A stretch of 64,000 bases of DNA from an uncultured virus (IMG/VR IMGVR_UViG_3300025126_000736) (lineage: Duplodnaviria > Heunggongvirae > Uroviricota > Caudoviricetes). The position numbers were made by a program, and so were the translations under genes. The notes beneath the pieces are model-generated. The model searched no databases. It was not told where the DNA came from and saw only the letters and a program-made list of their open reading frames with translations. Below, one piece after another: positions 24,351 through 55,123 of the stretch (its first letter is position 1; every line of letters begins with the position of its first letter). Location of the stretch: IMG/VR virus record IMGVR_UViG_3300025126_000736. One strand, given 5' to 3'.

Positions 24351-25361
24351 TTAAAAAACAATTAATCCAAAATCACGTTTAACACGATCACAAGTTTCTT
24401 GAGTGATAGAACGAGATATAATGCTACCTTTATGTAAAATATTAAGAAGTTCTTGCTTGTCGCTCATTAATATTTCTCGTTTTGCACGAATTGGTGTAAT
24501 TAATTCAACTAACAAATCGGTAAGAAGTGATTTTAAAGTTCCATCACCAAGTCCACCAGCGCGATAATTTTCTTTCATTTCTTGTAAATGGATTTTGTCT
24601 TGATAAAAAGCATCTAGGTAAGCAAAAACAACATTTCCTTCTACCTGACCTTTGGATTCAATGGTTAAATGATTAGGATCAGTGTACATTTTTTTTACAA
24701 TTTTTTTAATTTCATTGTTTGTTGAATCAAAATTAATTGTAAATCCAGCAGATTTAGACATTTTTGACTTACCATCAACACTAGGTAGTCGCGACACTGT
24801 ACTTAAAAGTGAAGAACATTTAATAAGTGTATTTTTCCCTGAGACTTGATTGACTTTTTTTACAATTTCATTGGTTTGTTCAATCATGGGTAGCTGATCA
24901 TCCCCTACTGGAATAATTTCTGCATTAAATGCCGTGATATCCGCAGCCTGACTAATCGGGTAATTAAGGAACCCAACGGGGATATTTTCAGAATAAGATT
25001 TATTCTTTTTTTCCATAGAAAGTGTTGGGTTACGTTCCAGTCTTGCAAGAGTGACAAGATTGCTATAAAGCATAGTAAGTTCTGGTAATGCTGGTAATGC
25101 TGATTGCAGACATATTGTTGTTTTTAAAGGGTCAATGCCAACAGCAAGATAATCAGCCATAACATTAAGAATATTAGAGGATACTTTACTTGGTTCATAA
25201 CCATTATCAGTCAACCCTTGCATATCAGCAATGAGAATAGTTTGACTATTGTGTTCCTGTAGTGCAATTCTTTGCATAAGAGAACCCGCAAAATGACCTA
25301 AATGAAGTTTGCCAGTTGCTCTATCACCTGTAAGAATTGTTTTGTTTTTTATTGGTTCCAT
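24351..25361 (-). CDS. trpS: tryptophanyl-tRNA synthetase (TrpRS-II-like)
   Basis: LTGDRATGKLHLGH (HIGH), YPISQAADI, VGDDQLPMIEQT, KMSKS, MYTDP. Confidence 0.95.
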   Translation of the reverse strand: MEPIKNKTILTGDRATGKLHLGHFAGSLMQRIALQEHNSQTILIADMQGLTDNGYEPSKVSSNILNVMADYLAVGIDPLKTTICLQSALPALPELTMLYSNLVTLARLERNPTLSMEKKNKSYSENIPVGFLNYPISQAADITAFNAEIIPVGDDQLPMIEQTNEIVKKVNQVSGKNTLIKCSSLLSTVSRLPSVDGKSKMSKSAGFTINFDSTNNEIKKIVKKMYTDPNHLTIESKGQVEGNVVFAYLDAFYQDKIHLQEMKENYRAGGLGDGTLKSLLTDLLVELITPIRAKREILMSDKQELLNILHKGSIISRSITQETCDRVKRDFGLIVF

Positions 25362-25430: not shown

Positions 25431-26003
25431 TTAAAAATTAAGCACCTTTTGTTCTACAGAAAGCTTTTTATATAATTCTAAGTTATCGTTTTTAAAGTTT
25501 TCCTTTTGATGTAGAGGTAGTGCATTAAAAATAATCTCTGGTATGCCTACTCGTTTAAATTTTTCAGCCATAAGGATTGGGAGATCGCAAGGCTCATAAA
25601 GTAATACTGAGTCATAAGATAATAAAAGCTTTACCACTTCAATATTTCCATATTGTGCAGCACGGAAAAGGGCGCAATTACTACGAGAGGCGGGATTAAC
25701 CCCTAATTCGATCAATGTTTTTACAGTTATGAGATCGTTATAGTGTGCCGCTAAAATAATAAGAAATGAATTATATTTAAAGGCATCAAACCATTTTGTT
25801 TTAATGAATTCATGAATAAATGAAGTTAAGTTATAGCTGTAAAGTTTTGTAATTACTTCTGGGTAATAATTAGTTTTCTCATCTTCATCATTTATGTTTG
25901 GGATGGTTAATTCAGCATATTTAAGGAAATTGGCAATATCTTTTTCATAAATAGACTTAAAAAGCTTTTCTTTATGTTTATCTAACACTAACACTCGCTG
26001 CAT
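25431..26003 (-). CDS. ankyrin-repeat protein carrying an IscB-derived N-terminal peptide
   Basis: LILAAHYNDLITVKTLIELGVNP and ALFRAAQYGNIEVVKLLL ankyrin repeats; first residues MQRVLVLDKHK resemble an IscB N-terminus. Confidence 0.8.
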   Translation of the reverse strand: MQRVLVLDKHKEKLFKSIYEKDIANFLKYAELTIPNINDEDEKTNYYPEVITKLYSYNLTSFIHEFIKTKWFDAFKYNSFLIILAAHYNDLITVKTLIELGVNPASRSNCALFRAAQYGNIEVVKLLLSYDSVLLYEPCDLPILMAEKFKRVGIPEIIFNALPLHQKENFKNDNLELYKKLSVEQKVLNF

Positions 26004-26300
26004 ATTATTCCTTTTGGTTAAATTTTCCCATAACAGGACACCTCTTACGAGGGTAAAATACTCCTAGACAATGTTAAATAAGGTTTATTGAACTACGCAC
26101 TGCTTCTTACCCAAAAGTCACTGTTTAACGTAGATCCTGAGTTTGTGGAACTGGAGTAGCATTCCGAACTCACTATATATTCTTACTTAACGTAGTGAAT
26201 GCAAAAATGCAAACACTGAGTTGGGTCAACCATAATCTTGCGATCTCACCTTAATTTGTTGACTTTTTCAAGCCCATTCCTTTAGGTGTGGGTGATTGAC
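26004..26300 (-). ncRNA. omegaRNA/HEARO-like scaffold (left end of an IS200/IS605 IscB element), orphan
   Basis: Minus strand begins GTCAATCACCCACACCTAAAGGAATGGGCTTG; contains GTTGACC, CTACGTT, TGCTACTCCAGTTCC, TAAACAG and AACATTGTC blocks typical of omegaRNA, then AAGGA RBS and MQRVLVLD. Confidence 0.8.
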
Positions 26301-33840: not shown

Positions 33841-34206
33841 TTAAACTTCAGTTTCGTCCAAGTCTAATTCAACACTAGCATATCGAATGGTTTCAGCACC
33901 TTTATTATTTTGCTTACCTTTGATTTTTCGCATTTGTTTTAATACGATTTGTGCCGCTTCTTCGATAGTTTTGTACATTTCGTCACCTGTGTGAGAAACA
34001 TGAATGTCGTTGCCAGCAATAGGTACGTGGGCTTTAACTTCTGCTTTGCCTGTTGACTGTGTTGAGTGATCAATAACTGTGACGATAATATCTTCTACTA
34101 CAAAATTTTCAAAATTATCTAAAACGCTTAAGAAATGCTCGTTAATTGAAGAGTTAATCGCGTCTGTCATTGTCATGTTGATTGCTTTTGAAGTGATTTT
34201 TGTCAT
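33841..34206 (-). CDS. hpf: ribosome hibernation promoting factor / RaiA (S30AE family)
   Basis: ITSKAINMTMTDAI...AEVKAHVPIAGNDIHVS...DEMYKTIEEAAQIVLKQMRKIKGK; AGGAG RBS. Confidence 0.8.
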   Translation of the reverse strand: MTKITSKAINMTMTDAINSSINEHFLSVLDNFENFVVEDIIVTVIDHSTQSTGKAEVKAHVPIAGNDIHVSHTGDEMYKTIEEAAQIVLKQMRKIKGKQNNKGAETIRYASVELDLDETEV

Positions 34207-34438: not shown

Positions 34439-34894
34439 TTAAAAACAACTAACTTTGTTGCTAATGATATTCTGAAACAAAAATCGTTCAAATACAGAAT
34501 AAAAGTAAAAAACAACTACGTTAACTGGATATATTTCATCCTTAATTGCAATCTTGCTAATAAGCTCTGACTTATTTGTAAACATTTCTGTTTTTTTTGG
34601 AAATCCATTGATGAATAAAGTAAAATCTATTTTATTAAAAACGCTGGTAAGTAAAATTTCTAGATTAAAGGAGCTAGATCTCACAATAACAGAAAAAGAA
34701 CGACATCGAGCATTACCATCTCTGGATTGTAAATACTCCATAGTTTTTTTAAAGTTATTTTCTTTCTTATCAATAACGAAAAATATATGTTTAAGAAAAT
34801 TTTCTTCTTTAACGGAAAAGCGATTAAAAAGGAAACTAAATTCGTCCATAATTAAACTAATATCAGATACGGAAAAATCGTTTTCGTTATCCAT
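34439..34894 (-). CDS. hypothetical protein with KVxxF C-terminus
   Basis: 151-aa ORF coupled to the HNH gene; ends ISNKVSCF*. Confidence 0.6.
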   Translation of the reverse strand: MDNENDFSVSDISLIMDEFSFLFNRFSVKEENFLKHIFFVIDKKENNFKKTMEYLQSRDGNARCRSFSVIVRSSSFNLEILLTSVFNKIDFTLFINGFPKKTEMFTNKSELISKIAIKDEIYPVNVVVFYFYSVFERFLFQNIISNKVSCF

Positions 34895-35357
34895 GAGATT
34901 TTAACTCTCTATATAAGTCATCATCCATATTTTGTTTTTCATAATTACATAAAGTACAGAATGTAATGTAATTGGATAGTTCGTCTTTGCCGCCTTTGGA
35001 TTTTGGAATAATATGATCCTTTGTCATAAGGACTTCCTCACCTGCTTCATTAATGGCGTAGAGGTTGAAGTGATAGCTTTCGCTTGTAGGAACGCCATGT
35101 TTGTTGAGGCTTCTCTCCTTCGCCATAAAAGAACCTTTAATGTGGCAGATATCACATGATAAAGATTGCTTAAAAACATAATAGCGATCAGACCCCATTT
35201 TCATTAAATCACCATCATAATCTTTTTTAATGGTTTTTAATTTAAAATATTTTGGGTAATCACTAGGGTTAGGAAGAAAATTGAGAATTTCTTCTGGCTT
35301 ATATGTTTCTTTGCGTTCGTAAGTGTTTCCTACTGGCTTTTTTGTTTTGGTTGGCAT
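34887..35357 (-). CDS. HNH endonuclease
   Basis: CDIC...MTKDHIIPKSKGGKDELSNYITFCTLCNYEK. Confidence 0.85.
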   Translation of the reverse strand: MPTKTKKPVGNTYERKETYKPEEILNFLPNPSDYPKYFKLKTIKKDYDGDLMKMGSDRYYVFKQSLSCDICHIKGSFMAKERSLNKHGVPTSESYHFNLYAINEAGEEVLMTKDHIIPKSKGGKDELSNYITFCTLCNYEKQNMDDDLYRELKSHG

Positions 35358-35449
35358 TGTAGTAAATCCAAGTAAATAAAGTATGTTATAATTATAGAGG
35401 ATTGGATCGTAAAGGTCAAAGAGTATTTTGGAAATTTAACTTTAAGAAA

Positions 35450-35644
35450 TTGACAATTATTAAAAATATTATATATTAATTAGTAAGTGTTGAGAGTTAT
35501 CAATCACCTAAAATAAATAAATGAAAATAAATAATTATAAATCAATAACTTAAAAATAGTTAAAAAAATAGGTAATTCGATTATATAGTTATAATTAATA
35601 TAGTTATTTTAGTAGATAAAGGATTTTTTAAAAAACAATGCAAG
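35450..35644 (+). promoter_or_regulatory. CRISPR leader with sigma70-like promoter and IHF consensus site
   Basis: TTGACA at 35450; AT-rich; AATCAATAACTTA at 35540..35552 matches WATCAANNNNTTR. Confidence 0.7.
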
Positions 35645-37170
35645 GTTTACCGCATACGTGCGGCTTTGAAGGTTTCCACTTTTTCCATTTATATATATTA
35701 CCTTGTTTACCGCATACGTGCGGCTTTGAAGAGAAAGAGCACCAATAATAACTTTGTCGTCTTTGTTTACCGCATACGTGCGGCTTTGAAGAATAGATAA
35801 CTTACTATATAGATTATACATTGGGTTTACCGCATACGTGCGGCTTTGAAGATCTGATGCTATCGCGTTTTTATCACCTGATGCGTTTACCGCATACGTG
35901 CGGCTTTGAAGAACCTTCGTTGTCAGATATTTTAACATAATCTAGTTTACCGCATACGTGCGGCTTTGAAGTTGTTTTTTTTGGTTTATTTTAGACTATA
36001 CATGGTTTACCGCATACGTGCGGCTTTGAAGTTGATCGTTTGGTCTCATATCTAAAACGTTGTCGTTTACCGCATACGTGCGGCTTTGAAGGTCAAGTTA
36101 GAATAAAGTCAATTTCTCACATCTGTTTACCGCATACGTGCGGCTTTGAAGTTTCTTTAAGTTGAAAAGTATTTATTTCAAACAGTTTACCGCATACGTG
36201 CGGCTTTGAAGAATAGATTCCTTTTTCATTAAATAGATCTTCTAGTTTACCGCATACGTGCGGCTTTGAAGTGACTCTGGAATGCCGATTCGTTACGCTC
36301 TTAAGTTTACCGCATACGTGCGGCTTTGAAGATCTTCTGTGCATTTCAACATTGATTCTTCATAGTTTACCGCATACGTGCGGCTTTGAAGTTCATCAAT
36401 AATTCCAACTGTGAAATAATTGTCGTTTACCGCATACGTGCGGCTTTGAAGAACTTTACACAAGCGTAGCGCGGTGAAAGTAGGGTTTACCGCATACGTG
36501 CGGCTTTGAAGTCAATCTGATGGCACTCCTCATTCTCATTTTTTAGTTTACCGCATACGTGCGGCTTTGAAGAATTTATCACGTCCACGTTTTACGCCTT
36601 TGCCGTTTACCGCATACGTGCGGCTTTGAAGTAAAATAGATAGGTTAATGCCCTTCTTTATCTTGTTTACCGCATACGTGCGGCTTTGAAGATAAAATCC
36701 ATTTTGCAAAATATCTAAATCAGCGTTTACCGCATACGTGCGGCTTTGAAGAGTATTAGCAGGCGTATAAATAATTAATTTGTCGTTTACCGCATACGTG
36801 CGGCTTTGAAGTTGCAATATGACTATAATTTATTAAAAAAAAGGTTTACCGCATACGTGCGGCTTTGAAGTATGAGTGAAGATCAATTTAGTTATTTTGA
36901 TAAGTTTACCGCATACGTGCGGCTTTGAAGTCTGGTGCTGTTTTAAGAGATATAATTCAATGTGTTTACCGCATACGTGCGGCTTTGAAGAAGTGATTCT
37001 TCATCACTAAAAGTGTATGTATTGTTTACCGCATACGTGCGGCTTTGAAGAAATCCAAATCCTATAGACTCTTGAATGTCAAAGTTTACCGCATACGTGC
37101 GGCTTTGAAGTCTTATATTTAAAGCCTCCTCTTGTTATTGCTTGTTTACCGCATACGTGCGGCTTTGAAG
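35645..37170 (+). CRISPR. CRISPR array, 26 identical 27-nt repeats GTTTACCGCATACGTGCGGCTTTGAAG and 25 spacers (mostly 33 nt)
   Basis: Direct 60-nt periodicity; CCGCA-TACG-TGCGG hairpin followed by 8-nt handle CTTTGAAG (type I-F-like). Confidence 0.99.
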
Positions 37171-37320
37171 TGAAATGAAGGTATTGGAAGAATTCTGATT
37201 ATGAAACATATCTAAGTTGTGCGTTGGATTGTATTTTAATGATGGAAAGTCTTGATAAAGAAAAAAGAAGAAAATTGAAAAAAATATTTTTAATGAATTA
37301 TTTAAATGGAGAATAGAGAA

Positions 37321-37623
37321 ATGAAAACAAAAATAATAGTAGACAAAGATTGTAAACTTAAAAGACCGTTACTTGAAGAAGAAGGTAAAAGGACTGGGTA
37401 TAGCATTCAGTTATTAGATATTAATAATATACTGCCTGTTAGTATCAGAATGACGCAAAATATAGTATTACACAATGTTGAAATTTTTAAAAATTTTGGC
37501 GTTTACAAAAATTTAAAGGGTGAAAGAATGCGATATTATGTTTATGAAAATAAGATTGACTTATTTGTAGAAGAATTAAAAAAACACAAATATACGCATT
37601 TGAATAAATGGGGGCTAAAATAA
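37321..37623 (+). CDS. small basic hypothetical protein encoded inside the CRISPR array
   Basis: Track ORF 37306..37623; GGAG RBS 9 nt before ATG 37321; lies between repeats 26 and 27. Confidence 0.6.
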   Translation: MKTKIIVDKDCKLKRPLLEEEGKRTGYSIQLLDINNILPVSIRMTQNIVLHNVEIFKNFGVYKNLKGERMRYYVYENKIDLFVEELKKHKYTHLNKWGLK

Positions 37624-37681
37624 TTATAAAAATATCTTTAAATAAAATGGTATCTCACTTAAGAATGATATCTGAAATTAA

Positions 37682-37828
37682 GTTTACCGCATAAGTGCGG
37701 CTTTGAAGAGTGATGTCAGCACTTGCGAATACCGCTTGGGCGTTTACCGCATACGTGCGGCTTTGAAGTTTTGTCGTAGACGAAAGCCGACACAATAACC
37801 AGTTTACCGCATAAGTGCGGATTTAAGG
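37682..37828 (+). CRISPR. distal CRISPR segment: 3 repeats (variant, consensus, degenerate terminal) and 2 spacers of 33 nt
   Basis: Repeats at 37682 (ATAAGTG variant), 37742 and 37802 (GTTTACCGCATAAGTGCGGATTTAAGG). Confidence 0.95.
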
Positions 37829-37925
37829 TTGTATTTAAAAAAAATATATAGTCGTGCAAAGGTATTTATGTAACAATTTAAATTTAAATTATTTTTATGC
37901 AATAAAAAATAAACAATAGAAAAAG

Positions 37926-37955
37926 TTGACTTTATGTTTTATGCTGATATAAACT
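37926..37955 (+). promoter_or_regulatory. putative cas operon promoter
   Basis: TTGACT at 37926 followed by a TATAAA/TAAACT -10 candidate. Confidence 0.5.
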
Positions 37956-38018
37956 AATTATATAAAAGAAGTTTTTAAGAAAAATAAATCATTGTATTGT
38001 ATAAGGAAAGACAACGTA

Positions 38019-40658
38019 ATGAAGGCAAATAAAACTCAATCACTAATAAATCACAGTAGAAAAATAGAGGATTTATCTTATAAAATACTGGATAATTTGA
38101 GTATAAATTATAATGATTTTCTTCCAGAAAAAACAATAAAAAAAATAATAAAATATGTGGCACTGTTCCATGACATAGGAAAAGTAGATCCTAATTTTCA
38201 ATTATTTATTGATGATAAAGCAACGAGTGATTATTCTAGTAATGGTGTGCATTTAAGTAAAAAAGGATTTTCTTTTGAGGATTACTTTAGGCATAATGAG
38301 TTATCTTTTTTCTTAGTAAATGAGTTAGTTGAGAAAATAAATGGACTAAATGCAATTCAATTAAAAATAGTTAAAAACATAGTGCTTTGGCATCACGCTG
38401 CCCCCATAAGAAAAGAAAGTATTACGTCTTCTTTTATTAAGGGAAAGCTAAGGCCGTCAAAAGATTTATTGAAGATTAATTTTGAAAAATATATTAATGA
38501 GATGAATGAGCCAGATTTAAAATTAAGAGATTTTGAAAACATTTGGTGTTGTGATGAATACAATATGTATAAATACAAAATGTTTTACAGTGAAGACGCA
38601 AGAGATAAGACTTTAGTAGATATAAAAGACGATATTAATATAGAGGCGACAATATCATTAATTAAAACAATAATAATAACTGCTGATCGCTTAATATCAT
38701 CTTTAGAGGGAAGAATTGATAATTTTGAAAATATTTTTAAAGATATTTTTAGTGAGAATTTGGAAGAAAGTAATTTATCAAAACAAATAGGATTAATGGA
38801 AAAGAATTTTTATCCAGAAAGCGCACAAAGTAAAAAGCAGAGTAGTGCTTGTAAGGAATTATTAAAATTTAAAGACAGAATATCAATATTGGATGCCCCT
38901 GCTGGTGCAGGAAAAACAAAAACTTCATTGCAGTGGGCTAAAATAAATAATGCAAAAAAAATATATTACATTGTGCCTAGGGCTATTATAGCTGAGGAAC
39001 TTTTTCAAGAAATGAGAAAAGATTATTTACCTTCGCATGTAAAATATGAGCTTGTGACGGGTGATAAAAAAATAAGATGGGATGGAAAAAAAGAGGTAGA
39101 ATTAGATCATGATAGTGTATTATTTAATTCAGAGATAATATTTACGACAATAGACCAAGTTATTAAGTCAGTGACTACGCATAAAAATATAACACTTTTG
39201 CTTGATTTAATGTTAAGTCATATAGTTTTTGATGAATATCATGAATATTATAAAATGTCTGGAATTGACTTATTATTTGCTGAAATAATAAGATTGAAGG
39301 GGTTAATGAAGGAGCCAAATACATTAATTATGTCAGCTACTCCGAATTATTATATGTTAGAGAATTTTTTAGGAATATATAATAAAAGAAGCAGTAATAA
39401 TTCAATAGTATGTTTTGAAAGTGTAAACCAAGAAAAGTTTTTGATTGAGTATTTGCCTTATGAGGAAAATGATTTTATTACAGCTAACACTATTTTATTT
39501 GAACAAGAATGTTCTGACTTAAAATTAAAAAGAGCTGAGGTTGATAATATTGAAAAAGAAAAGAATCCGTTTTTCCAAACTCATAAAAATGATATAAAAA
39601 CAATAGTTATTTCAAATACTGCAACAACTGCACAATTGTCATATATAGTGAATGGTGAGAAAGAAAAGTCATTATTAGCACATTCAAAATATAATAAGTC
39701 TGCTAAAAAAGATATATTAAGTAATATAAAAAAGGAATTTAAGTTATTAGATAGTAAGGAATGCACTGTGTTGAGGAGTGGCCCTATTGTCCAAGCATCA
39801 TTAAATATAACATCAAATAAATTAATTACAGAAGCAACTACAATTGAAAATACTCTTCAGCGATTGGGTAGATTAAATCGTTTTGGTGATAAAATTGTTG
39901 GAGAATTTATTATAGCGATATCAAGTAATTTTTTTATTGTAGGAGATGATTATAAGGTCAAAGATAGTAAGGTATTTGATTTATTAGGGAAGAATAATTC
40001 TAAAAAATCAAGTATATTATGGTTAAAATTTTTACAAAAAGAATTAGGAGTAAAAGTTGGCTTAAAAACAAGTTTTAGTATAAAGGAAATGTACGATATT
40101 TATAAAGGATTTTATAGCAAGGAAGAACATTTGGAGGTATTAGGTGAAGAATTAATAGTTTCTCTTAGAGATAGTTGTAAAAATATAGATAAAAACATTG
40201 TAGACCCAATCGAATTAATAGGTAAGAAAAATATAAAAGAAAAGGTAGTTAAGTTATCAAAACATTCATTAAGATCACAAGGATTTTACACTAAGATGGC
40301 GATTTACAATATGAATGAGAATTCTATGGTATTGGATAATGAATATATGGAGGAAGTTTCAATATCAAGAAGAGATTTGCTTTTATATAATGAAGATTTT
40401 AAATTTATAAGTGATACAAAGAAGAAGCTTGATATTATTTATAAAGATATGAAGAAAAGTGAAATAAAAAGAATAAAAAAACTAAACGATCAGCAGTTTT
40501 TGAGTTTATCTAGAGATTTAAGTTGTCCAATATTTGTATCATATAGTTTGGAAGACTTAGAGAAAATGAATAAGAGTGAGCAAGATGAAGAATCTATAAT
40601 TTATATAAAATCAAAAAAACAAGATGTAGGTTATATAAAAATAAAAAAATTAAAGTAA
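38019..40658 (+). CDS. cas3: Cas3 HD nuclease-helicase (no N-terminal Cas2 domain)
   Basis: LINHS, HDIGK, RHNE, WHH, ADRL HD motifs; APAGAGKT, DEYH, SAT, QRLGRLNR helicase motifs; track ORF 37992..40658, ATG at 38019. Confidence 0.95.
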   Translation: MKANKTQSLINHSRKIEDLSYKILDNLSINYNDFLPEKTIKKIIKYVALFHDIGKVDPNFQLFIDDKATSDYSSNGVHLSKKGFSFEDYFRHNELSFFLVNELVEKINGLNAIQLKIVKNIVLWHHAAPIRKESITSSFIKGKLRPSKDLLKINFEKYINEMNEPDLKLRDFENIWCCDEYNMYKYKMFYSEDARDKTLVDIKDDINIEATISLIKTIIITADRLISSLEGRIDNFENIFKDIFSENLEESNLSKQIGLMEKNFYPESAQSKKQSSACKELLKFKDRISILDAPAGAGKTKTSLQWAKINNAKKIYYIVPRAIIAEELFQEMRKDYLPSHVKYELVTGDKKIRWDGKKEVELDHDSVLFNSEIIFTTIDQVIKSVTTHKNITLLLDLMLSHIVFDEYHEYYKMSGIDLLFAEIIRLKGLMKEPNTLIMSATPNYYMLENFLGIYNKRSSNNSIVCFESVNQEKFLIEYLPYEENDFITANTILFEQECSDLKLKRAEVDNIEKEKNPFFQTHKNDIKTIVISNTATTAQLSYIVNGEKEKSLLAHSKYNKSAKKDILSNIKKEFKLLDSKECTVLRSGPIVQASLNITSNKLITEATTIENTLQRLGRLNRFGDKIVGEFIIAISSNFFIVGDDYKVKDSKVFDLLGKNNSKKSSILWLKFLQKELGVKVGLKTSFSIKEMYDIYKGFYSKEEHLEVLGEELIVSLRDSCKNIDKNIVDPIELIGKKNIKEKVVKLSKHSLRSQGFYTKMAIYNMNENSMVLDNEYMEEVSISRRDLLLYNEDFKFISDTKKKLDIIYKDMKKSEIKRIKKLNDQQFLSLSRDLSCPIFVSYSLEDLEKMNKSEQDEESIIYIKSKKQDVGYIKIKKLK

Positions 40659-40678: not shown

Positions 40679-41650
40679 ATGGAAAAAGTTGAAGGAATAA
40701 AAAGTGTTGATTTTTTAATAAGGGCTTCAGGAAATGGTGTTGTTAACTGGAATGGTACCACTCCAGTGCGTGGTTTGGATGGTAAGGAATTAAATAATCA
40801 TATGTTGCCAAAACTAAGAGGTTATAATAATGAGACAGGTAAAATAAAAGAAGAAAATGGATATCGTTATAAAAAATTAGCAACTGAGATAAATTTTAAA
40901 GAAACCCCGCTATATGTTAGTCAGAATTGTATAAGACATCATTTATTTAAAGACCAATCAAGTGATATGCATTTTGCTTCAAAAAAAGGAAGTAATTTGG
41001 ATTCAAAGTTTTTACTAATGTCAATTAGTGGTTTACTGAGAGGCTATGTTATACCAAGCACTCAATGTAAAAGAAAATCAGCATTAATAATGACTGATTT
41101 TGTTGACGAATTAGGAAATGGAAATTTTGAACAATTTGGAAATTCTGGTGAAAAAGATTCTAATTCAATTTACTCTAAAACAACGTTTGGAGAGACAAAA
41201 TATAATGCTAAAGGATCTATATCAATTGAAGACTTGCAGTTTATATCATTGGATAAGAAATTTGATAGAGAATCATATGTTGTAAAAAATGAAGTAGAGG
41301 GTCATAAGTTAGCAAAAGAATTAACGGAATTTTTGAAAGAACTTGACCCATTAAGTAATAGTAAACCTTTAGCTGAATTTGGAGAATACTATAGAAAGGG
41401 AAGCATTTATAGAGAGTGTGAAAGCGGAATATTAATAAATCAAGATGGGTTAAAAATATTAATAAAAATACAGCTTGAGTTAATAGAAAACTTATCTATA
41501 AAGCAAGCAAAGGGCTGGTTGCAGGTGGAATCTTTAGAATTGGATTATAATAACTCTTCAAAAATGTTTAGACTTGAGAAAAACAAGATGGAAGTATTAG
41601 AGGATTTAGAGGACGATTTTGCGGTATACTACGTAAAGAAGGGGGAGTAA
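40679..41650 (+). CDS. cas7fv: type I-Fv (I-F2) Cascade backbone Cas7fv
   Basis: GIKSVDF...GVVNWNG...NHMLPKLRGY...TPLYVSQNCIRHHLF...LGNGNFEQ...LQFISLDKKFDR, recognisably like Shewanella putrefaciens Cas7fv. Confidence 0.93.
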   Translation: MEKVEGIKSVDFLIRASGNGVVNWNGTTPVRGLDGKELNNHMLPKLRGYNNETGKIKEENGYRYKKLATEINFKETPLYVSQNCIRHHLFKDQSSDMHFASKKGSNLDSKFLLMSISGLLRGYVIPSTQCKRKSALIMTDFVDELGNGNFEQFGNSGEKDSNSIYSKTTFGETKYNAKGSISIEDLQFISLDKKFDRESYVVKNEVEGHKLAKELTEFLKELDPLSNSKPLAEFGEYYRKGSIYRECESGILINQDGLKILIKIQLELIENLSIKQAKGWLQVESLELDYNNSSKMFRLEKNKMEVLEDLEDDFAVYYVKKGE

Positions 41651-41703: not shown

Positions 41704-42738
41704 ATGATAATAAAAATAGTATATGAGTCAAAATGGGGGAACTCATTTTTGGATGGTATCGCTGGTGAAAATAGAAATTATGCAGTGTCGTTATCTAAAA
41801 TGAATAACGGAAGTAATAAGAATAATGCAAAATCAATATATAAAGAAAGGGATATTTCTATAAACACGGTGTATGGTTTGTTATATCGTTTCCTTGGCGC
41901 AAGGAAGCCATTGTTTAAAATGTTGGAAGAAATAAATAATGAAGATGTTTTAGGGAAAATAATAGACGAAGATAAAATTAGTTTTAATAATGAAATAAAG
42001 ACAAAAACAGATGAATTAGTTTTTTTAAGAAGCACGATGTTGAGTAATGATCAAAATAGTTATTCAGGCATACCAGATGAGTCAATATTATTAAATAATG
42101 GTATACAAGAGATATTTAGTATTTTCGAATACAGTAGAGCAGAATTAATTAATTATATTGTTAATAACAATAAAGTGTTAAAGAAAATAAAAAATATATC
42201 AATAATTGAGTTGTCAGAAAAATTAGAAAACGCAAGAAAAGATAGTGATTTCAAGATAAATGATAAAGACCAAGTTGAATTATTAAGTAATATAAATAAT
42301 TTACTATTTGGTGTTCCTTTAATTGTAGATAAATCTAACTTAATGTTGGTCGCATTCAATAAAATGTCAATTGATTTTTTTTCAAACAATACTATTAATG
42401 AAAAAGATTTGAGATTTTTATCAAGCAAAAAAACATTTGCGGGGATAAGTTTGAATGGAAATTCATTTACTTTAAAAGATTTTATGAAAAAGTTTTCAAA
42501 TTCAAAAATAGTATATGGAAATCCATATAAGACAGATTTTTGGGTAGAAAATCCAAGTAATGGAAAAAACATGAAATTTAATAAAGGGTTAACAAAGCAA
42601 AACGGTGTATTAACAATTGATATTGACATTGATTATGATGAATCATTAGAATTAAAAAAGTTAATAGATTTTGCTGGTGTCCCCAGTTTTTATCTGGGGA
42701 AAAAGGGGTTTGCATATATAGATGAAATAATAATTTAA
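41704..42738 (+). CDS. cas5fv: type I-Fv Cas5fv
   Basis: I.YES.W.NSFL N-terminus, TVYGLLYRFLG, AGVPSFYLGKKGFAYI C-terminus. Confidence 0.88.
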   Translation: MIIKIVYESKWGNSFLDGIAGENRNYAVSLSKMNNGSNKNNAKSIYKERDISINTVYGLLYRFLGARKPLFKMLEEINNEDVLGKIIDEDKISFNNEIKTKTDELVFLRSTMLSNDQNSYSGIPDESILLNNGIQEIFSIFEYSRAELINYIVNNNKVLKKIKNISIIELSEKLENARKDSDFKINDKDQVELLSNINNLLFGVPLIVDKSNLMLVAFNKMSIDFFSNNTINEKDLRFLSSKKTFAGISLNGNSFTLKDFMKKFSNSKIVYGNPYKTDFWVENPSNGKNMKFNKGLTKQNGVLTIDIDIDYDESLELKKLIDFAGVPSFYLGKKGFAYIDEIII

Positions 42739-42749
42739 GGAATAAGAAA

Positions 42750-43373
42750 ATGTATTATGAATATTTAATTTTTAGCGAAATAATGCCAACTAGATTAACC
42801 TTGCATTCTGTGGTTTCTCATTTTTTTGGAACGAAAGACTTAAGTAAAATAAAGTACAGAGTAGAAATGGAAGCTAATATAATAAGGATAAAAACCGATA
42901 AATTTTTAGAAGGTGATTTTGAAATAGAATTGGTTAATTTAAAAAACAAAAAATTTAAATGTAAATTATTTAAAGTTAATGAATGTAAGAATATTGATTT
43001 CAAAGAAGATTCTTATACTGTTTGTGGCATTATAGAATATGGAGTTAATTCATTAGCTCCAATAAAGGAATCAGTGAAGCGAGTGAGATGTAAGCGTTGT
43101 CCTATACATTTAGGCAAGTTTCAAGGTGGGTTAGAGAAGATTTTTAAGGAAAATATAGAAAAAAAAATGGGCGTAAAAGTAATTGAAATGACAAACACTT
43201 CATTTAATAGAATGCCTTCAGAAGAATTGCTGAAAGATAAAGTACAGTTAAATAATTTAATTTATATGAATTTGAAGGTTAAAGTTGTTAATAAAGATCT
43301 TTTTAATGAACTTCAGTATAAATCTATTTTTCAGAAAAAAAGCTATGGACTTGGAAATATAAATATTATATAA
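42750..43373 (+). CDS. cas6: divergent Cas6 family endoribonuclease
   Basis: Last gene of the cas operon; C-terminal IFQKKSYGLG G-loop; N-terminal LHSVVSHFF. Confidence 0.7.
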   Translation: MYYEYLIFSEIMPTRLTLHSVVSHFFGTKDLSKIKYRVEMEANIIRIKTDKFLEGDFEIELVNLKNKKFKCKLFKVNECKNIDFKEDSYTVCGIIEYGVNSLAPIKESVKRVRCKRCPIHLGKFQGGLEKIFKENIEKKMGVKVIEMTNTSFNRMPSEELLKDKVQLNNLIYMNLKVKVVNKDLFNELQYKSIFQKKSYGLGNINII

Positions 43374-43572: not shown

Positions 43573-44001
43573 ATGAATGGGCTTAGTAAATTAGAAAAAA
43601 AAGATTACACAACAGTGTTAATTATAAATAAACTTTTGAAAGAATATCCAAATAAAATTGATTTACGTCATTTAGATTTGTATGAAGATTTTTCTATTAT
43701 TTATGATGATGTTGGAAAAAAGAAATTTGCTAGTTATTTTAGAGAATCTGTTAAGGGGTTGAATGAAAAAAAAATAATATCAATAAGTAATAATGATTAC
43801 GAAACAAGTAAAAACAACACTTTGAGCGGCTCAGGAGAATACTCATTAGCACTCAATATAATACTAAAAGAAGCAGGGTTAGAAAAAATAGAAAAATCGA
43901 GCTTAATTAAAATTATTCCAAAAGACATTAAGAAAGGACTAGTAGATGCCGCAACAGCAACATTGATGAAAAAAGCAATAGATTATATTTTTGGTATTTA
44001 A
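43573..44001 (+). CDS. hypothetical protein
   Basis: 142-aa ORF, GAGGTG RBS. Confidence 0.6.
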   Translation: MNGLSKLEKKDYTTVLIINKLLKEYPNKIDLRHLDLYEDFSIIYDDVGKKKFASYFRESVKGLNEKKIISISNNDYETSKNNTLSGSGEYSLALNIILKEAGLEKIEKSSLIKIIPKDIKKGLVDAATATLMKKAIDYIFGI

Positions 44002-53365: not shown

Positions 53366-53590
53366 GTGAATAACCACACCCTAAAGGATGTGGCTTCTTA
53401 TTGAAGCCAAATTCTTAGGACTCAAGTTGCTTCGGCTTCTTGTGGTTATTTTAATCCCACTTTTTAGTTGAAAAACTAAAATATGATATGAGTATTACCT
53501 ACAAATTTTTCCAGTTTGTAGCACTATTAATCTGATATCAAGGGTAGGAAGAAATAACAACCTTCGGGTTGATTTAACGTAAATAAGAGG
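53366..53590 (+). ncRNA. omegaRNA scaffold of IscB
   Basis: Structured non-coding region directly upstream of iscB (GGCTTC-TTATT-GAAGCC, CTACAAA..TTTGTAG, AACC-TTCG-GGTT hairpins). Confidence 0.75.
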
Positions 53591-53596
53591 ATAATA

Positions 53597-55123
53597 ATGC
53601 AAAAAAACAAAAGTAATGATGGGCAATATTACGTTTATGTCCAAGACATAGATGGAACTCCGCTTATGCCGACCAAGCGTTTTCGCAAAGTGAGACTTTT
53701 ATTAAAAAAAGGTGAGGCTAAAGTCGTTTCTTACGACCCATTCACCATTAAAATGCTTTATAATGTAGGAAAAGAAGTTCAAACGCTTAATTTGGGCATT
53801 GATACAGGCACGTCAAATATTGGCGTTTCCGTCACAACAAATGAAGGTAAAGAATTGCTTTCTTCTACATTTAAAACAAACACATTAAAGATAAAAGGCA
53901 CTATGGAAAAACGCCTTTCTCATAGACACACAAGAACACGACTCAAACGAGAAAAGAAAAAACGTAGAGCCATTGCCAATAACACTCATTTTAAGGGTGT
54001 TAAAGAATTTATGGCCTATGGCGCAAAAACCACCACAAAATACAAAGTAATTCGTTCTTCAATTTGTCGCTTAGAAAAGAAAGTTAACGCTGGTAAATTA
54101 TCAAATACCGCGCAACATTGCCTTGACAATCATATCAATGTAGTCAACAAAATAAAGAAAATATTGCCCATTAAAAACGTAGTGGTAGAATATGCTTCAT
54201 TCGATCTTCATAAGTTAATTAACCCCAGTGTGAAAGGAGTTGATTATCAAAAAGGGGCGCTTTACAATGAGTTAAATCATAAATCTTATGTATTGAGTAG
54301 AGATGATCATACTTGTGTTTTGTGTAACAAAAGAAAAAAAGATAAGTTTCTTGAAGTACATCATGTTATTTATAAATCTAATGGTGGTGCAGATCATTTT
54401 AATAATATGGTGACGTTACACAGTGAATGTCATAAAAAAGTGCATAATGATGTTAAAATAGAGGAAAATCTTTTTAACATAATTAAAAAGAGAGATATTT
54501 TAAAAGAGACTCTTCAAACAAGGCAAGCCACTATTTTAAACAGTGTTATGTCACGATTTTTTCTATTTTTACATAATAATTTTGAGTATGTAGAAGAAAC
54601 CTTTGGTTATGAAACAAAAGCAAAACGTTATGAATATGGGATTGATAAATCGCATAATAATGATGCATTTGTTATTTCCTTTGGGAATAATAAGCCCAAA
54701 AAATTAAGTCGTGCGGTGGAAATTGAATACGAACAATTTGCCAATAACAAGCGTGTATTCATTTATGCAACGACAAAAAGAAGGTATACCTCCATTATTG
54801 ATGGTAAAAAAGTCACTGTTTATAATCGAAAAAAAGCAATGAACCAAAAAGAAGATTCTCTTGAAGAGTTCAGAGAAAAATACACTCAAAAACACGTTTC
54901 TCAACTAAAAGTATTGAAAGGTACAGTTAAGTTTCAAGATCGGTCACATTATTCGTTTGAAAAGGGAGATTTGGTTAAGCTCAATGGAAAATTAAGGGTA
55001 ATTTCAGGCAATACCAATAACGGAAAGTATGTAAGATTGAAGAATGAGGGGACAACTAATTTCAGTCCTAAAGAGTTAATAATGCTTAACCCTCGCCAAA
55101 ATTTCAGAAGGATTAATTGGTAA
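53597..55123 (+). CDS. iscB: IscB RNA-guided endonuclease (PLMP/RRXRR, split RuvC, HNH)
   Basis: GTPLMPTKR; RuvC-I LGIDTG; Arg-rich bridge helix; RuvC-II VVEYASFD; HNH EVHHV..SNGG.D...N..TL...CH..VH; RuvC-III KSHNNDA. Confidence 0.93.
   Translation: MQKNKSNDGQYYVYVQDIDGTPLMPTKRFRKVRLLLKKGEAKVVSYDPFTIKMLYNVGKEVQTLNLGIDTGTSNIGVSVTTNEGKELLSSTFKTNTLKIKGTMEKRLSHRHTRTRLKREKKKRRAIANNTHFKGVKEFMAYGAKTTTKYKVIRSSICRLEKKVNAGKLSNTAQHCLDNHINVVNKIKKILPIKNVVVEYASFDLHKLINPSVKGVDYQKGALYNELNHKSYVLSRDDHTCVLCNKRKKDKFLEVHHVIYKSNGGADHFNNMVTLHSECHKKVHNDVKIEENLFNIIKKRDILKETLQTRQATILNSVMSRFFLFLHNNFEYVEETFGYETKAKRYEYGIDKSHNNDAFVISFGNNKPKKLSRAVEIEYEQFANNKRVFIYATTKRRYTSIIDGKKVTVYNRKKAMNQKEDSLEEFREKYTQKHVSQLKVLKGTVKFQDRSHYSFEKGDLVKLNGKLRVISGNTNNGKYVRLKNEGTTNFSPKELIMLNPRQNFRRINW

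Follow-up and report, generated by a model that had tools for sequence, protein, structure and literature searches.

Type I-Fv (I-F2) systems, known from Shewanella putrefaciens CN-32 and from Acinetobacter and Legionella plasmids, are the closest described relatives of the CRISPR locus studied here. Passages of one report on type I-Fv (PMC4937334) describe that the number of Cas7fv subunits tracks spacer length, that spacer extensions of up to +18 nucleotides (nt) were tested, that Cas6f forms a roadblock by staying on the 3' hairpin, and that Cas7fv forms filaments on unspecific RNA. Here, we analyzed a stretch of 64,000 nt from an uncultured virus (IMG/VR record IMGVR_UViG_3300025126_000736), the whole of which is called the window below. 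In it, a long CRISPR array (array 1) and a short one (array 2) are separated by exactly 511 base pairs (bp), which carry a complete open reading frame (ORF) of 100 amino acids (aa), ORF100. A preceding reading of the letters alone (the sequence-only reading) had described this segment as a gene-carrying "giant spacer". In our analysis, this unusual anatomy proved real and could be reproduced; its most likely origin is an ordinary rearrangement and not a novel capture of a gene.

The window has Cas7fv and Cas5fv in common with type I-Fv systems. The Acinetobacter and Legionella plasmid loci are the closest annotated ones (53–55% identity for Cas7fv and 30% for Cas5fv), and the repeat of the window shows the short hairpin with an 8-nt 3' tail that is also found in type I-Fv. 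However, the Cas3 of the window has no fused Cas2, the genes cas1 and cas2 are missing, and the Cas6 candidate has no family match. The arrangement also differs, because the arrays are placed upstream of cas3 and are divided by 511 bp with a gene.

The 27-nt repeat GTTTACCGCATACGTGCGGCTTTGAAG occurs 26 times in array 1 without a mismatch, which confirms that the main array terminates in a perfect repeat. The 25 spacers of array 1 measure 32–34 nt each, and their guanine–cytosine (GC) contents range from 0.16 to 0.48 (mean 0.29). Beyond the 511 bp at 37171–37681, the next repeat starts at 37682, and two more follow at 37742 and 37802. Repeat 27 differs from the consensus by a single change, C13A, which lies in the hairpin loop; repeat 28 is a perfect copy; and repeat 29 is degenerate with four changes, C13A among them. 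A degenerate terminal repeat is therefore present only past the gap, as had been noticed before. The hairpin (5-bp stem, 4-nt loop containing position 13) and the 8-nt tail are kept in all three repeat variants. C13A was found in two of the three repeats of array 2, compared with none of the 26 in array 1. All 27 ordinary spacers of the two arrays measure 32–34 nt. The two in array 2 (37709–37741 and 37769–37801) have GC contents of 0.55 and 0.42, compared with 28.6% for the genome and the mean of 0.29 in array 1, and spacer 27 (0.55) exceeds all 25 spacers of array 1 in GC content.

Short-read assembly graphs collapse repeats, and the array itself is split into contigs of about 150 nt in Logan, which would favor an assembly artefact or chimera that fused two arrays via their common repeat. 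We mapped four public runs (two DNA and two RNA) onto 36700–38400; the DNA runs may include the source sample. In both DNA runs examined, a 16,312-nt Logan contig, built by another assembler, extends from 37084 to past 38400. Repeat 25 and the unique spacer 25 are part of it, as are repeat 26, the insert, array 2 and cas3, so that it crosses both junctions, with an even depth of 49–53 and zero differences from the window. The exact coordinates of the gene-carrying gap were thus confirmed and its joins were reproduced by a second assembler. No contig contained an alternative join. Joints of 21 nt and loose ends in the DNA runs (37261–37296, 37629 and 37875) were discounted; they are A-rich and of low complexity, with sides shorter than 30 nt, and were assigned to k-mers of other organisms.

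Among the 24 runs listed, 20 contained every sampled word of the insert; all 20 are aquifer metagenomes, and they may include the source sample. Two aquifer metatranscriptome runs contained the words in part (shares of 0.82 and 0.22). RNA-library contigs from two other samples covered 37084–37393, 37161–37311, 37374–37635, 37614–37775 and the 5' part of cas3. The first of these bridges repeat 26 and the insert, and the one over 37614–37775 bridges the insert and repeats 27–28. These contigs are consistent with co-transcription of array 1, the insert and array 2, although they fall short of proof. Misassembly is unlikely as the source of the join, and a chimera of the two arrays retains next to no probability.

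The exact repeat was also found in three metagenome contigs (L001, L002 and L003), and was not found, in exact or relaxed form, in viral contigs and species genomes. L003 is an independent contig that contains the same array as the window, with an identical leader and identical spacers 1–19. L002 contains cas3, cas7fv, cas5fv, cas6, cas1 (PADLOC, 1.6 × 10−35), a putative cas2 that was assigned by sequence and position and has no family match, a 121-nt leader and a regular array of 15 repeats. L001 contains the same putative cas2, and its array, behind a leader of 100 nt, is regular. No gap interrupts the arrays of L001 and L002, and no relative of ORF100 was found in either contig.

Between the window and L002, identity is 44% for Cas3, 67% for Cas7fv, 51% for Cas5fv and 41% for the Cas6 candidate, and the repeats agree at 27 of 27 positions. 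The leaders of the window, L001 and L002 are mutually unalignable. Neither cas1 nor cas2 was found in the window by tblastn with the Cas1 and putative Cas2 of L002 (E ≤ 0.01). Because the repeats are identical, the Cas proteins share only 41–67% identity and cas1 and cas2 are absent from the window, the arrays are likely to have a history that is partly separate from that of the cas genes. This pattern suggests either array exchange or reliance on the adaptation genes of another genome. When targets of the spacers of the window, L001 and L002 were searched in the window and these loci, nothing beyond 21 nt with mismatches was found, and comparison of the arrays with phages and plasmids gave chance-level matches only (E 0.05–0.7).

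The composition of the insert is that of its surroundings. Its GC content is 0.245, compared with 0.284 ± 0.034 in windows of 511 bp, and its GC content at third codon positions is 0.22–0.23, compared with 0.19–0.34 in 12 genes. The insert has no terminal inverted repeats, in agreement with the earlier statement that it lacks insertion sequence (IS) ends, and neither of its ORFs matches a transposase or integrase family. The sole candidate for a target duplication is the 6-nt TGAAAT at or near both ends, which was found by eye and is not significant. We detected no decayed repeat inside the insert (best match 14–15 of 27 positions; shuffled sequences averaged 13.4 and reached at most 18), no terminator-like site in it, no promoter-like site in 37171–37320 or in its final 58 nt, and no Rfam family over 35300–38100 (E ≤ 1). 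The longest match of the insert to the rest of the window and to L001–L003 is 16 nt, tblastn against them gave nothing below E 0.25, and blastn of the insert and the cas region against phage records gave no match. It had also been noted that the insert does not resemble the leader. This is true, but it is uninformative, because the three genuine leaders cannot be aligned even among themselves.

The two edges of the insert are asymmetric. At the right edge, the intact ORF100 is followed by 58 nt of AT-rich DNA and by the first repeat of array 2, which is like the gene–leader–array junctions of L001 and L002. A truncated frame is present at the left edge only. This stop-to-stop frame of 45 codons is shut 5 nt past repeat 26 by an in-frame TGA (37176–37178), and its spacing of 4 nt from the ATG of ORF100 is operon-like. 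The sequence-only reading had called it a gene-like 3' fragment. The frame is present, with its 45 codons and its end in NYLNGE and a stop; its status as a gene is less secure, since an open run of at least 45 codons appears in the three forward frames of random 150-mers of this composition with a chance of 5.8%, and since no homologue (among longer proteins, or by tblastn against phages) and no Pfam or NCBIfam family was found. It is plausible that the frame is the 3' stump of an upstream gene, which we call X. If so, the in-frame TGA would move the breakpoint away from the repeat border, by as much as 8 nt into the "spacer" position, and a gene-derived part that does not start at the repeat border is contrary to a spacer-precise event. 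With a gene-to-array-like right edge and a TGA at the left edge, the picture of one array interrupted at a spacer position was not borne out.

Two other accounts of the insert were tried and rejected. One was a degenerate adaptation module, made of a Cas1 tail and a Cas2. Smith–Waterman comparison of the 45-codon tail with Cas1 C-termini gave no excess over shuffles, and ORF100 showed no similarity to Cas2 either by the same method or in Pfam (no Cas2 family at E ≤ 10); in these comparisons, 140–296 of 300 shuffled queries scored at least equal. The other was an alternative genetic code. The long ORFs end with TAA (50), TAG (3) and TGA (3), and recoding lengthens the ORFs little; the genetic code is standard.

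We propose that ORF100 and array 2 were native to their place before cas3, and that a rearrangement, in which the upstream gene was cut, brought array 1 next to them; in our judgement the chance that this reading is right is about even. The 511 bp would then be resident DNA of an AT-rich element and not a spacer. ORF100 would stand in its native place, directly upstream of the short, old array 2 and of cas3–cas7fv–cas5fv–cas6, and ORF100, array 2 and cas3–cas6 would form an older unit. A deletion, or illegitimate or homologous recombination, would have joined array 1, which has a leader and a promoter of its own, to this unit. The left breakpoint would lie 0–8 nt past repeat 26, and the right breakpoint within the gene before ORF100, whose last ~45 codons were spared. 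We infer this order of events because the edges are asymmetric, the composition of the insert is native, and the repeats and the spacer GC contents of array 2 are distinct.

Recombination between a spacer and a protospacer is another route by which a gene could enter an array. In staphylococci, such recombination between spacers and phage protospacers was reportedly described by Varble et al. in 2019, which would be a precedent. In the present case, a spacer of a continuous array would have recombined with the matching protospacer in gene X of a related element, and a second crossover downstream would have placed ORF100, together with the tail of X, between repeats 26 and 27. Relatives with an intact X would consequently be targeted by the first ~32 nt of the insert, acting as a guide. 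Such a capture could account for an insert that abuts a perfect repeat at its start and a repeat at its end, and whose composition matches the same kind of genome. However, the TGA 5 nt into the insert means that the presumed protospacer does not lie wholly in the frame of the fragment, unless it decayed later, and the flanking repeats differ at position 13 (C versus A). A contiguous donor of the insert, which the sequence-only reading expected, was not found, and neither was a protospacer, in the window, L001–L003, the phage and plasmid collections or the viral contigs. Our search of the literature on genes inside arrays and on spacer–protospacer recombination yielded nothing directly relevant. 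Moreover, the second crossover needs a donor in which ORF100 stands beside an array, that is, the same native adjacency. Thus, the capture and the rearrangement proposed above differ solely in the origin of the left junction. We consider the capture unlikely, although it keeps a modest share of the probability.

During spacer integration, the first repeat is duplicated, and acquisition is polarised. An aberrant integration by Cas1–Cas2, in which a 511-bp fragment was taken up as if it were a spacer, could explain why the insert stands where a spacer would, flanked by repeats whose hairpins are intact. However, the window has no cas1 or cas2, its Cas3 has no Cas2 domain, and the 27 ordinary spacers are uniform in length. 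In addition, repeats 26 and 27 differ; if repeat 27 had been the template, the A variant would be expected in the 25 later repeats. The end of the fragment also falls in intergenic DNA right behind an intact gene. Aberrant integration, which had been offered as one origin, is therefore very improbable.

ORF100 is complete, has a ribosome-binding site and lies on the strand of the precursor CRISPR RNA (crRNA), as had been described. An exhaustive phmmer search found three relatives, and a profile search extended the family to 11 clusters (90% identity level) including its own, with lengths of 91–113 aa. The ten other clusters are 42–56% identical to ORF100 and are all stand-alone and unannotated; the sources of the family are aquifer, marine and other metagenomes. 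The family alignment has 20 invariant columns, and the identical ORF100 protein was found on 38 + 15 contigs. Judging from this conservation, ORF100 is a real, conserved gene. It has no match in Pfam, NCBIfam, PHROGs or PADLOC, and none of the four family members scanned matched a Pfam helix-turn-helix family (E ≤ 10). ORF100 and the family alignments found no relative in viral contigs and species genomes; tblastn of ORF100, the 45-aa tail and the homologues P0022 and P0010 against phages gave nothing; and the family hidden Markov model (HMM) found ORF100 only in six-frame translations of the window and L001–L003. Imperfect AT-rich inverted repeats flank ORF100 (37280–37303 and 37618–37639; 13 nt at 92% and 22 nt at 73%) and could be operator sites or chance occurrences in AT-rich DNA.

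We then considered the predicted structure. An AlphaFold model of ORF100 from 14 aligned sequences reached a predicted local distance difference test score (pLDDT) of 76.2 and a predicted template modelling score of 0.69; an earlier AlphaFold2 model from four sequences had a pLDDT of 50.6, and its Foldseek list was noise. The newer model consists of N-terminal strands, a helix-turn-helix (H29–34/H42–51), a wing (E60–64/E70–75) and a C-terminal helix (H76–88), an order of elements like that of the winged helices of the MerR/excisionase type and of ArsR. In a VIA-align structural search, the top Z was 5.3 (bar ~8), and most of the list consisted of winged-helix DNA binders over residues ~25–90, with sub-bar Z of 3.0–4.8. 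MerR-family domains (GlnR, TnrA, BmrR, CueR, SoxR, TipAL, CvkR) and excisionases (Tn916 Xis, RdfS, Pukovnik Xis, P2 Cox) were among them, as were TraN, RacA and BldC. Residues ~25–90 superpose on domains of the MerR/excisionase type with a root-mean-square deviation of 2.3–4.0 Å over 49–64 residues. In Foldseek, ArsR/SmtB/CadC, MarR and PadR regulators prevailed, with weak scores (best E 0.19). The family profile matched the "Lmo1102 protein" of the PDB (E 0.021) over the presumed recognition helix and wing; from this alignment, and not from an annotation, we judge Lmo1102 to be ArsR/CadC-like. The leads from the ESM Atlas (Bro-N, DUF771, Cox, Rha) were all under the bar of that tool.

Nevertheless, Pfam, NCBIfam, PHROGs and PADLOC gave no match of ORF100 to the MerR, excisionase or ArsR families, and Z for these families is at most 4.8. 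Its N-terminus also holds about 25 additional residues with strands, a part that is similar to KilA-N, APSES or Bro-N-like folds at equally weak scores. Taking the weak fold and profile matches together, we think it probable that ORF100 is a small DNA-binding protein. A toxin, a regulator or an accessory protein had been proposed; the fold evidence favors a DNA-binding regulator, and no sign of a toxin was found in ORF100. CvkR is described as a MerR-type repressor of type V-K CRISPR-associated transposons (PMC9938897), and ORF100 is like CvkR in being a small regulator-like gene beside CRISPR components.

Several points weigh against the joining of array 1 to an older unit of ORF100, array 2 and cas genes. 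No relative was recovered in which a full gene X, ORF100 and then an array follow each other, and the "native adjacency" of ORF100 and array 2 is drawn solely from anatomy. The 58-nt stretch contains no promoter-like site, and the leaders are not comparable. A random break would fall 0–8 nt past a repeat in only ~15% of cases (9 of 60 positions), which leaves room for a repeat-guided event. C13A lies in a possibly neutral loop position, and it is present in repeats 27 and 29 and not in 28, a pattern that no simple model fits. No match of ORF100 clears a reliability bar (Z is at most 5.3, E is at least 0.19 in Foldseek and 0.021 for the HMM), and the four family collections are silent on it. 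Finally, the RNA contigs tell no strand, ends or processing, and DNA carry-over is possible.

If array 1 was joined upstream, ORF100 and array 2 came to lie in the path of the leader 1 promoter, and ORF100 came to lie between two cleavable repeats. The promoter in the leader of array 1 would transcribe array 1, the insert and array 2. Cas6 would cleave repeats 26 and 27 at the base of their hairpins and release an RNA of 538 nt with the ORF100 message. This predicted RNA would have a 5' crRNA handle, starting CUUUGAAG, and a 3' hairpin. A processed RNA of ~540 nt had been soundly predicted before, as the 8-nt handle, the 511 nt and the 19-nt hairpin add up to 538 nt. We infer both the processing of the ORF100 message by Cas6 and a regulatory role of ORF100. 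It is conceivable, by analogy with type I-Fv, that Cas7fv coats the 538-nt RNA and that translation of ORF100 comes under Cas-dependent control.

One may go further and suppose that ORF100, whatever its origin, was co-opted as a CRISPR-coupled regulator. Cas6 would release its message in the form of a giant crRNA-like RNA, Cas5fv and Cas7fv would set its translation by coating that RNA, and the protein would regulate the array or cas promoters. This supposition draws on the type I-Fv properties in the passages cited above, namely a backbone that extends with the spacer, the Cas6f roadblock and the Cas7fv filaments (PMC4937334). ORF100 has no promoter-like site of its own, its predicted fold is of a DNA-binding type, and a MerR-type repressor, CvkR, controls a CRISPR-associated transposon (PMC9938897). 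However, nothing ties the homologues of ORF100 to CRISPR, and processing, coating and DNA targets are all hypothetical. The spacer extensions given in the passages of PMC4937334 reach +18 nt, compared with ~480 nt here, and the putative Cas6 has no family match. Co-option is thus rather improbable. Even less probability attaches to a more specific form, in which ORF100 is a functional component of the immune locus and its message acts as a giant crRNA of 538 nt. The 5' handle would be the seeding point for Cas5fv, Cas7fv would polymerise along the RNA, translation of a DNA-binding regulator would follow the amount of free Cascade subunits and so sense Cascade status at the level of protein, and the X stump (~32 nt) would guide against sister elements in which X is intact. 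If true, this would be a natural instance of a message that codes for a protein and is packaged and controlled like a crRNA.

The features of the locus and of its surroundings are collected in Table 1. The operon downstream of the arrays is type I-Fv-like and lacks cas1 and cas2. Its Cas3 aligns to residues 114–984 of an annotated plasmid Cas2-3 and has no N-terminal Cas2 domain. The Cas6 candidate has no family in Pfam, NCBIfam or PADLOC, and blastp against the annotated Cas6f of a Legionella plasmid gave no match at E ≤ 1. Behind it, in the place of cas1 in L002, a 142-aa ORF (43573–44001, + strand) has a faint CARF-like match (PADLOC E 0.0017).

Table 1. Coordinates of the CRISPR locus and of other features in the window.
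Feature	Position	Strand	Remarks
Six tandem paralogous ORFs, ~393–401 aa	7579–15343	+	one scanned: RCC1-repeat protein, PF25390 2.4e-52
Class I (Trp/Tyr-type) tRNA synthetase	24351–25361	−	family match
Ribosome hibernation factor (HPF)	33841–34206	−	family match
HNH endonuclease	34887–35357	−	family match; adjoins array 1 leader
Leader of long array, 287 bp	35358–35644	+	AT-rich; best sigma-70-like site of the region, TTGACA-16-TATATT, 35450–35477
Array 1	35645–37170	+	26 perfect 27-nt repeats, 25 spacers; spacers 1–19 identical in L003
511-bp gap ("giant spacer")	37171–37681	+	GC 0.245, inside the range of the rest of the window
45-codon stop-to-stop frame ("X tail")	37179–37316	+	...YWKNSDYETYLSCALD...NYLNGE, then stop; TAG 4 nt before ATG of ORF100
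ORF100, 100 aa	37321–37623	+	GGAG 9 nt before ATG; alternative ATG 37306 gives 105 aa
AT-rich stretch, 58 nt	37624–37681	+	ORF100 stop to repeat 27; candidate native leader of array 2
Array 2	37682–37828	+	3 repeats (C13A; perfect; C13A + 3 changes), 2 spacers
Promoter-like site before cas3, TTGACT-18-TAAACT	37926–37955	+	weak: 9/12 matches, not above chance density
cas3 (HD + helicase, 879 aa)	38019–40658	+	Cas3fv type; PADLOC Cas3fv 4.5e-171, profile 112–593 of 951
cas7fv	40679–41650	+	NF040577 3.1e-115 (384.8 bits, cutoff 200); PADLOC Cas7fv 5.9e-136
cas5fv	41704–42738	+	PF20158 8.9e-08 (above cutoff); PADLOC Cas5fv 3.2e-50, full profile
Putative Cas6-type endoribonuclease	42750–43373	+	by position only; 41% identical to syntenic ORF of L002

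Most ORFs of the window have no family. The GC skew is strongly positive over the block of tandem paralogues. In addition to the genes in Table 1, the window holds ankyrin proteins, HNH genes, an IscB-like protein and HEARO RNAs, and no tRNA gene was found in it. A strong HEARO (IscB omega-RNA) match (26053–26300, − strand, 110.8 bits) adjoins an ankyrin-repeat ORF (25431–26003) and not IscB. The IscB-like ORF (53597–55123, + strand) encodes 508 aa with RRXRR and HNH, and a weak HEARO-like match lies upstream of it (53366–53600, + strand; 30.4 bits, E 7.8e-4, below the gathering threshold). Comparison of the window with phage and viral collections gave no match, and we saw no gene for a phage structural protein in it.

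If array 1 was indeed joined to an older unit, the locus would be a clean natural case of recombination remodelling CRISPR loci on mobile elements that lack adaptation genes. It would also present a natural construct, a coding message flanked by two Cas6 sites, and this in a subtype with a backbone protein known to extend along longer RNAs. The ORF100 family, with the cluster of the window and ten others, is a new small family of probable DNA binders. There is no evidence yet of a link between this family and CRISPR; if its members are unlinked to CRISPR, the locus would be an ordinary rearrangement scar with a passenger gene.

Al-Shayeb et al. have studied the CRISPR systems of huge phages. 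According to passages of their 2020 report, nearly all phage CRISPR systems lack Cas1, Cas2 and Cas4, and some phage CRISPR repeats are similar to those of their hosts (PMC7162821). The window is alike in that adaptation genes are absent and its repeats are identical to those of a Cas1-bearing locus elsewhere. It also resembles huge phages in being AT-rich and ORFan-rich and in carrying a tRNA synthetase, HPF and HNH genes, from which we would guess at a kinship with them. However, the 26 repeats of array 1 are far above the median of six repeats given for huge phages in passages of PMC7162821.

Arrays interrupted by an IS, a prophage, a plasmid remnant or a passenger gene likewise contain a gene-bearing segment that is not a spacer near their old end. 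In Sulfolobales, spacer–repeat irregularities are described as rare in passages of PMC4390879. The present arrangement differs from interrupted arrays in that its segment measures only 511 bp and lacks a transposase, an integrase, terminal inverted repeats and a clear target duplication. It differs from them also in that one edge of its insert resembles a native junction between a gene and an array.

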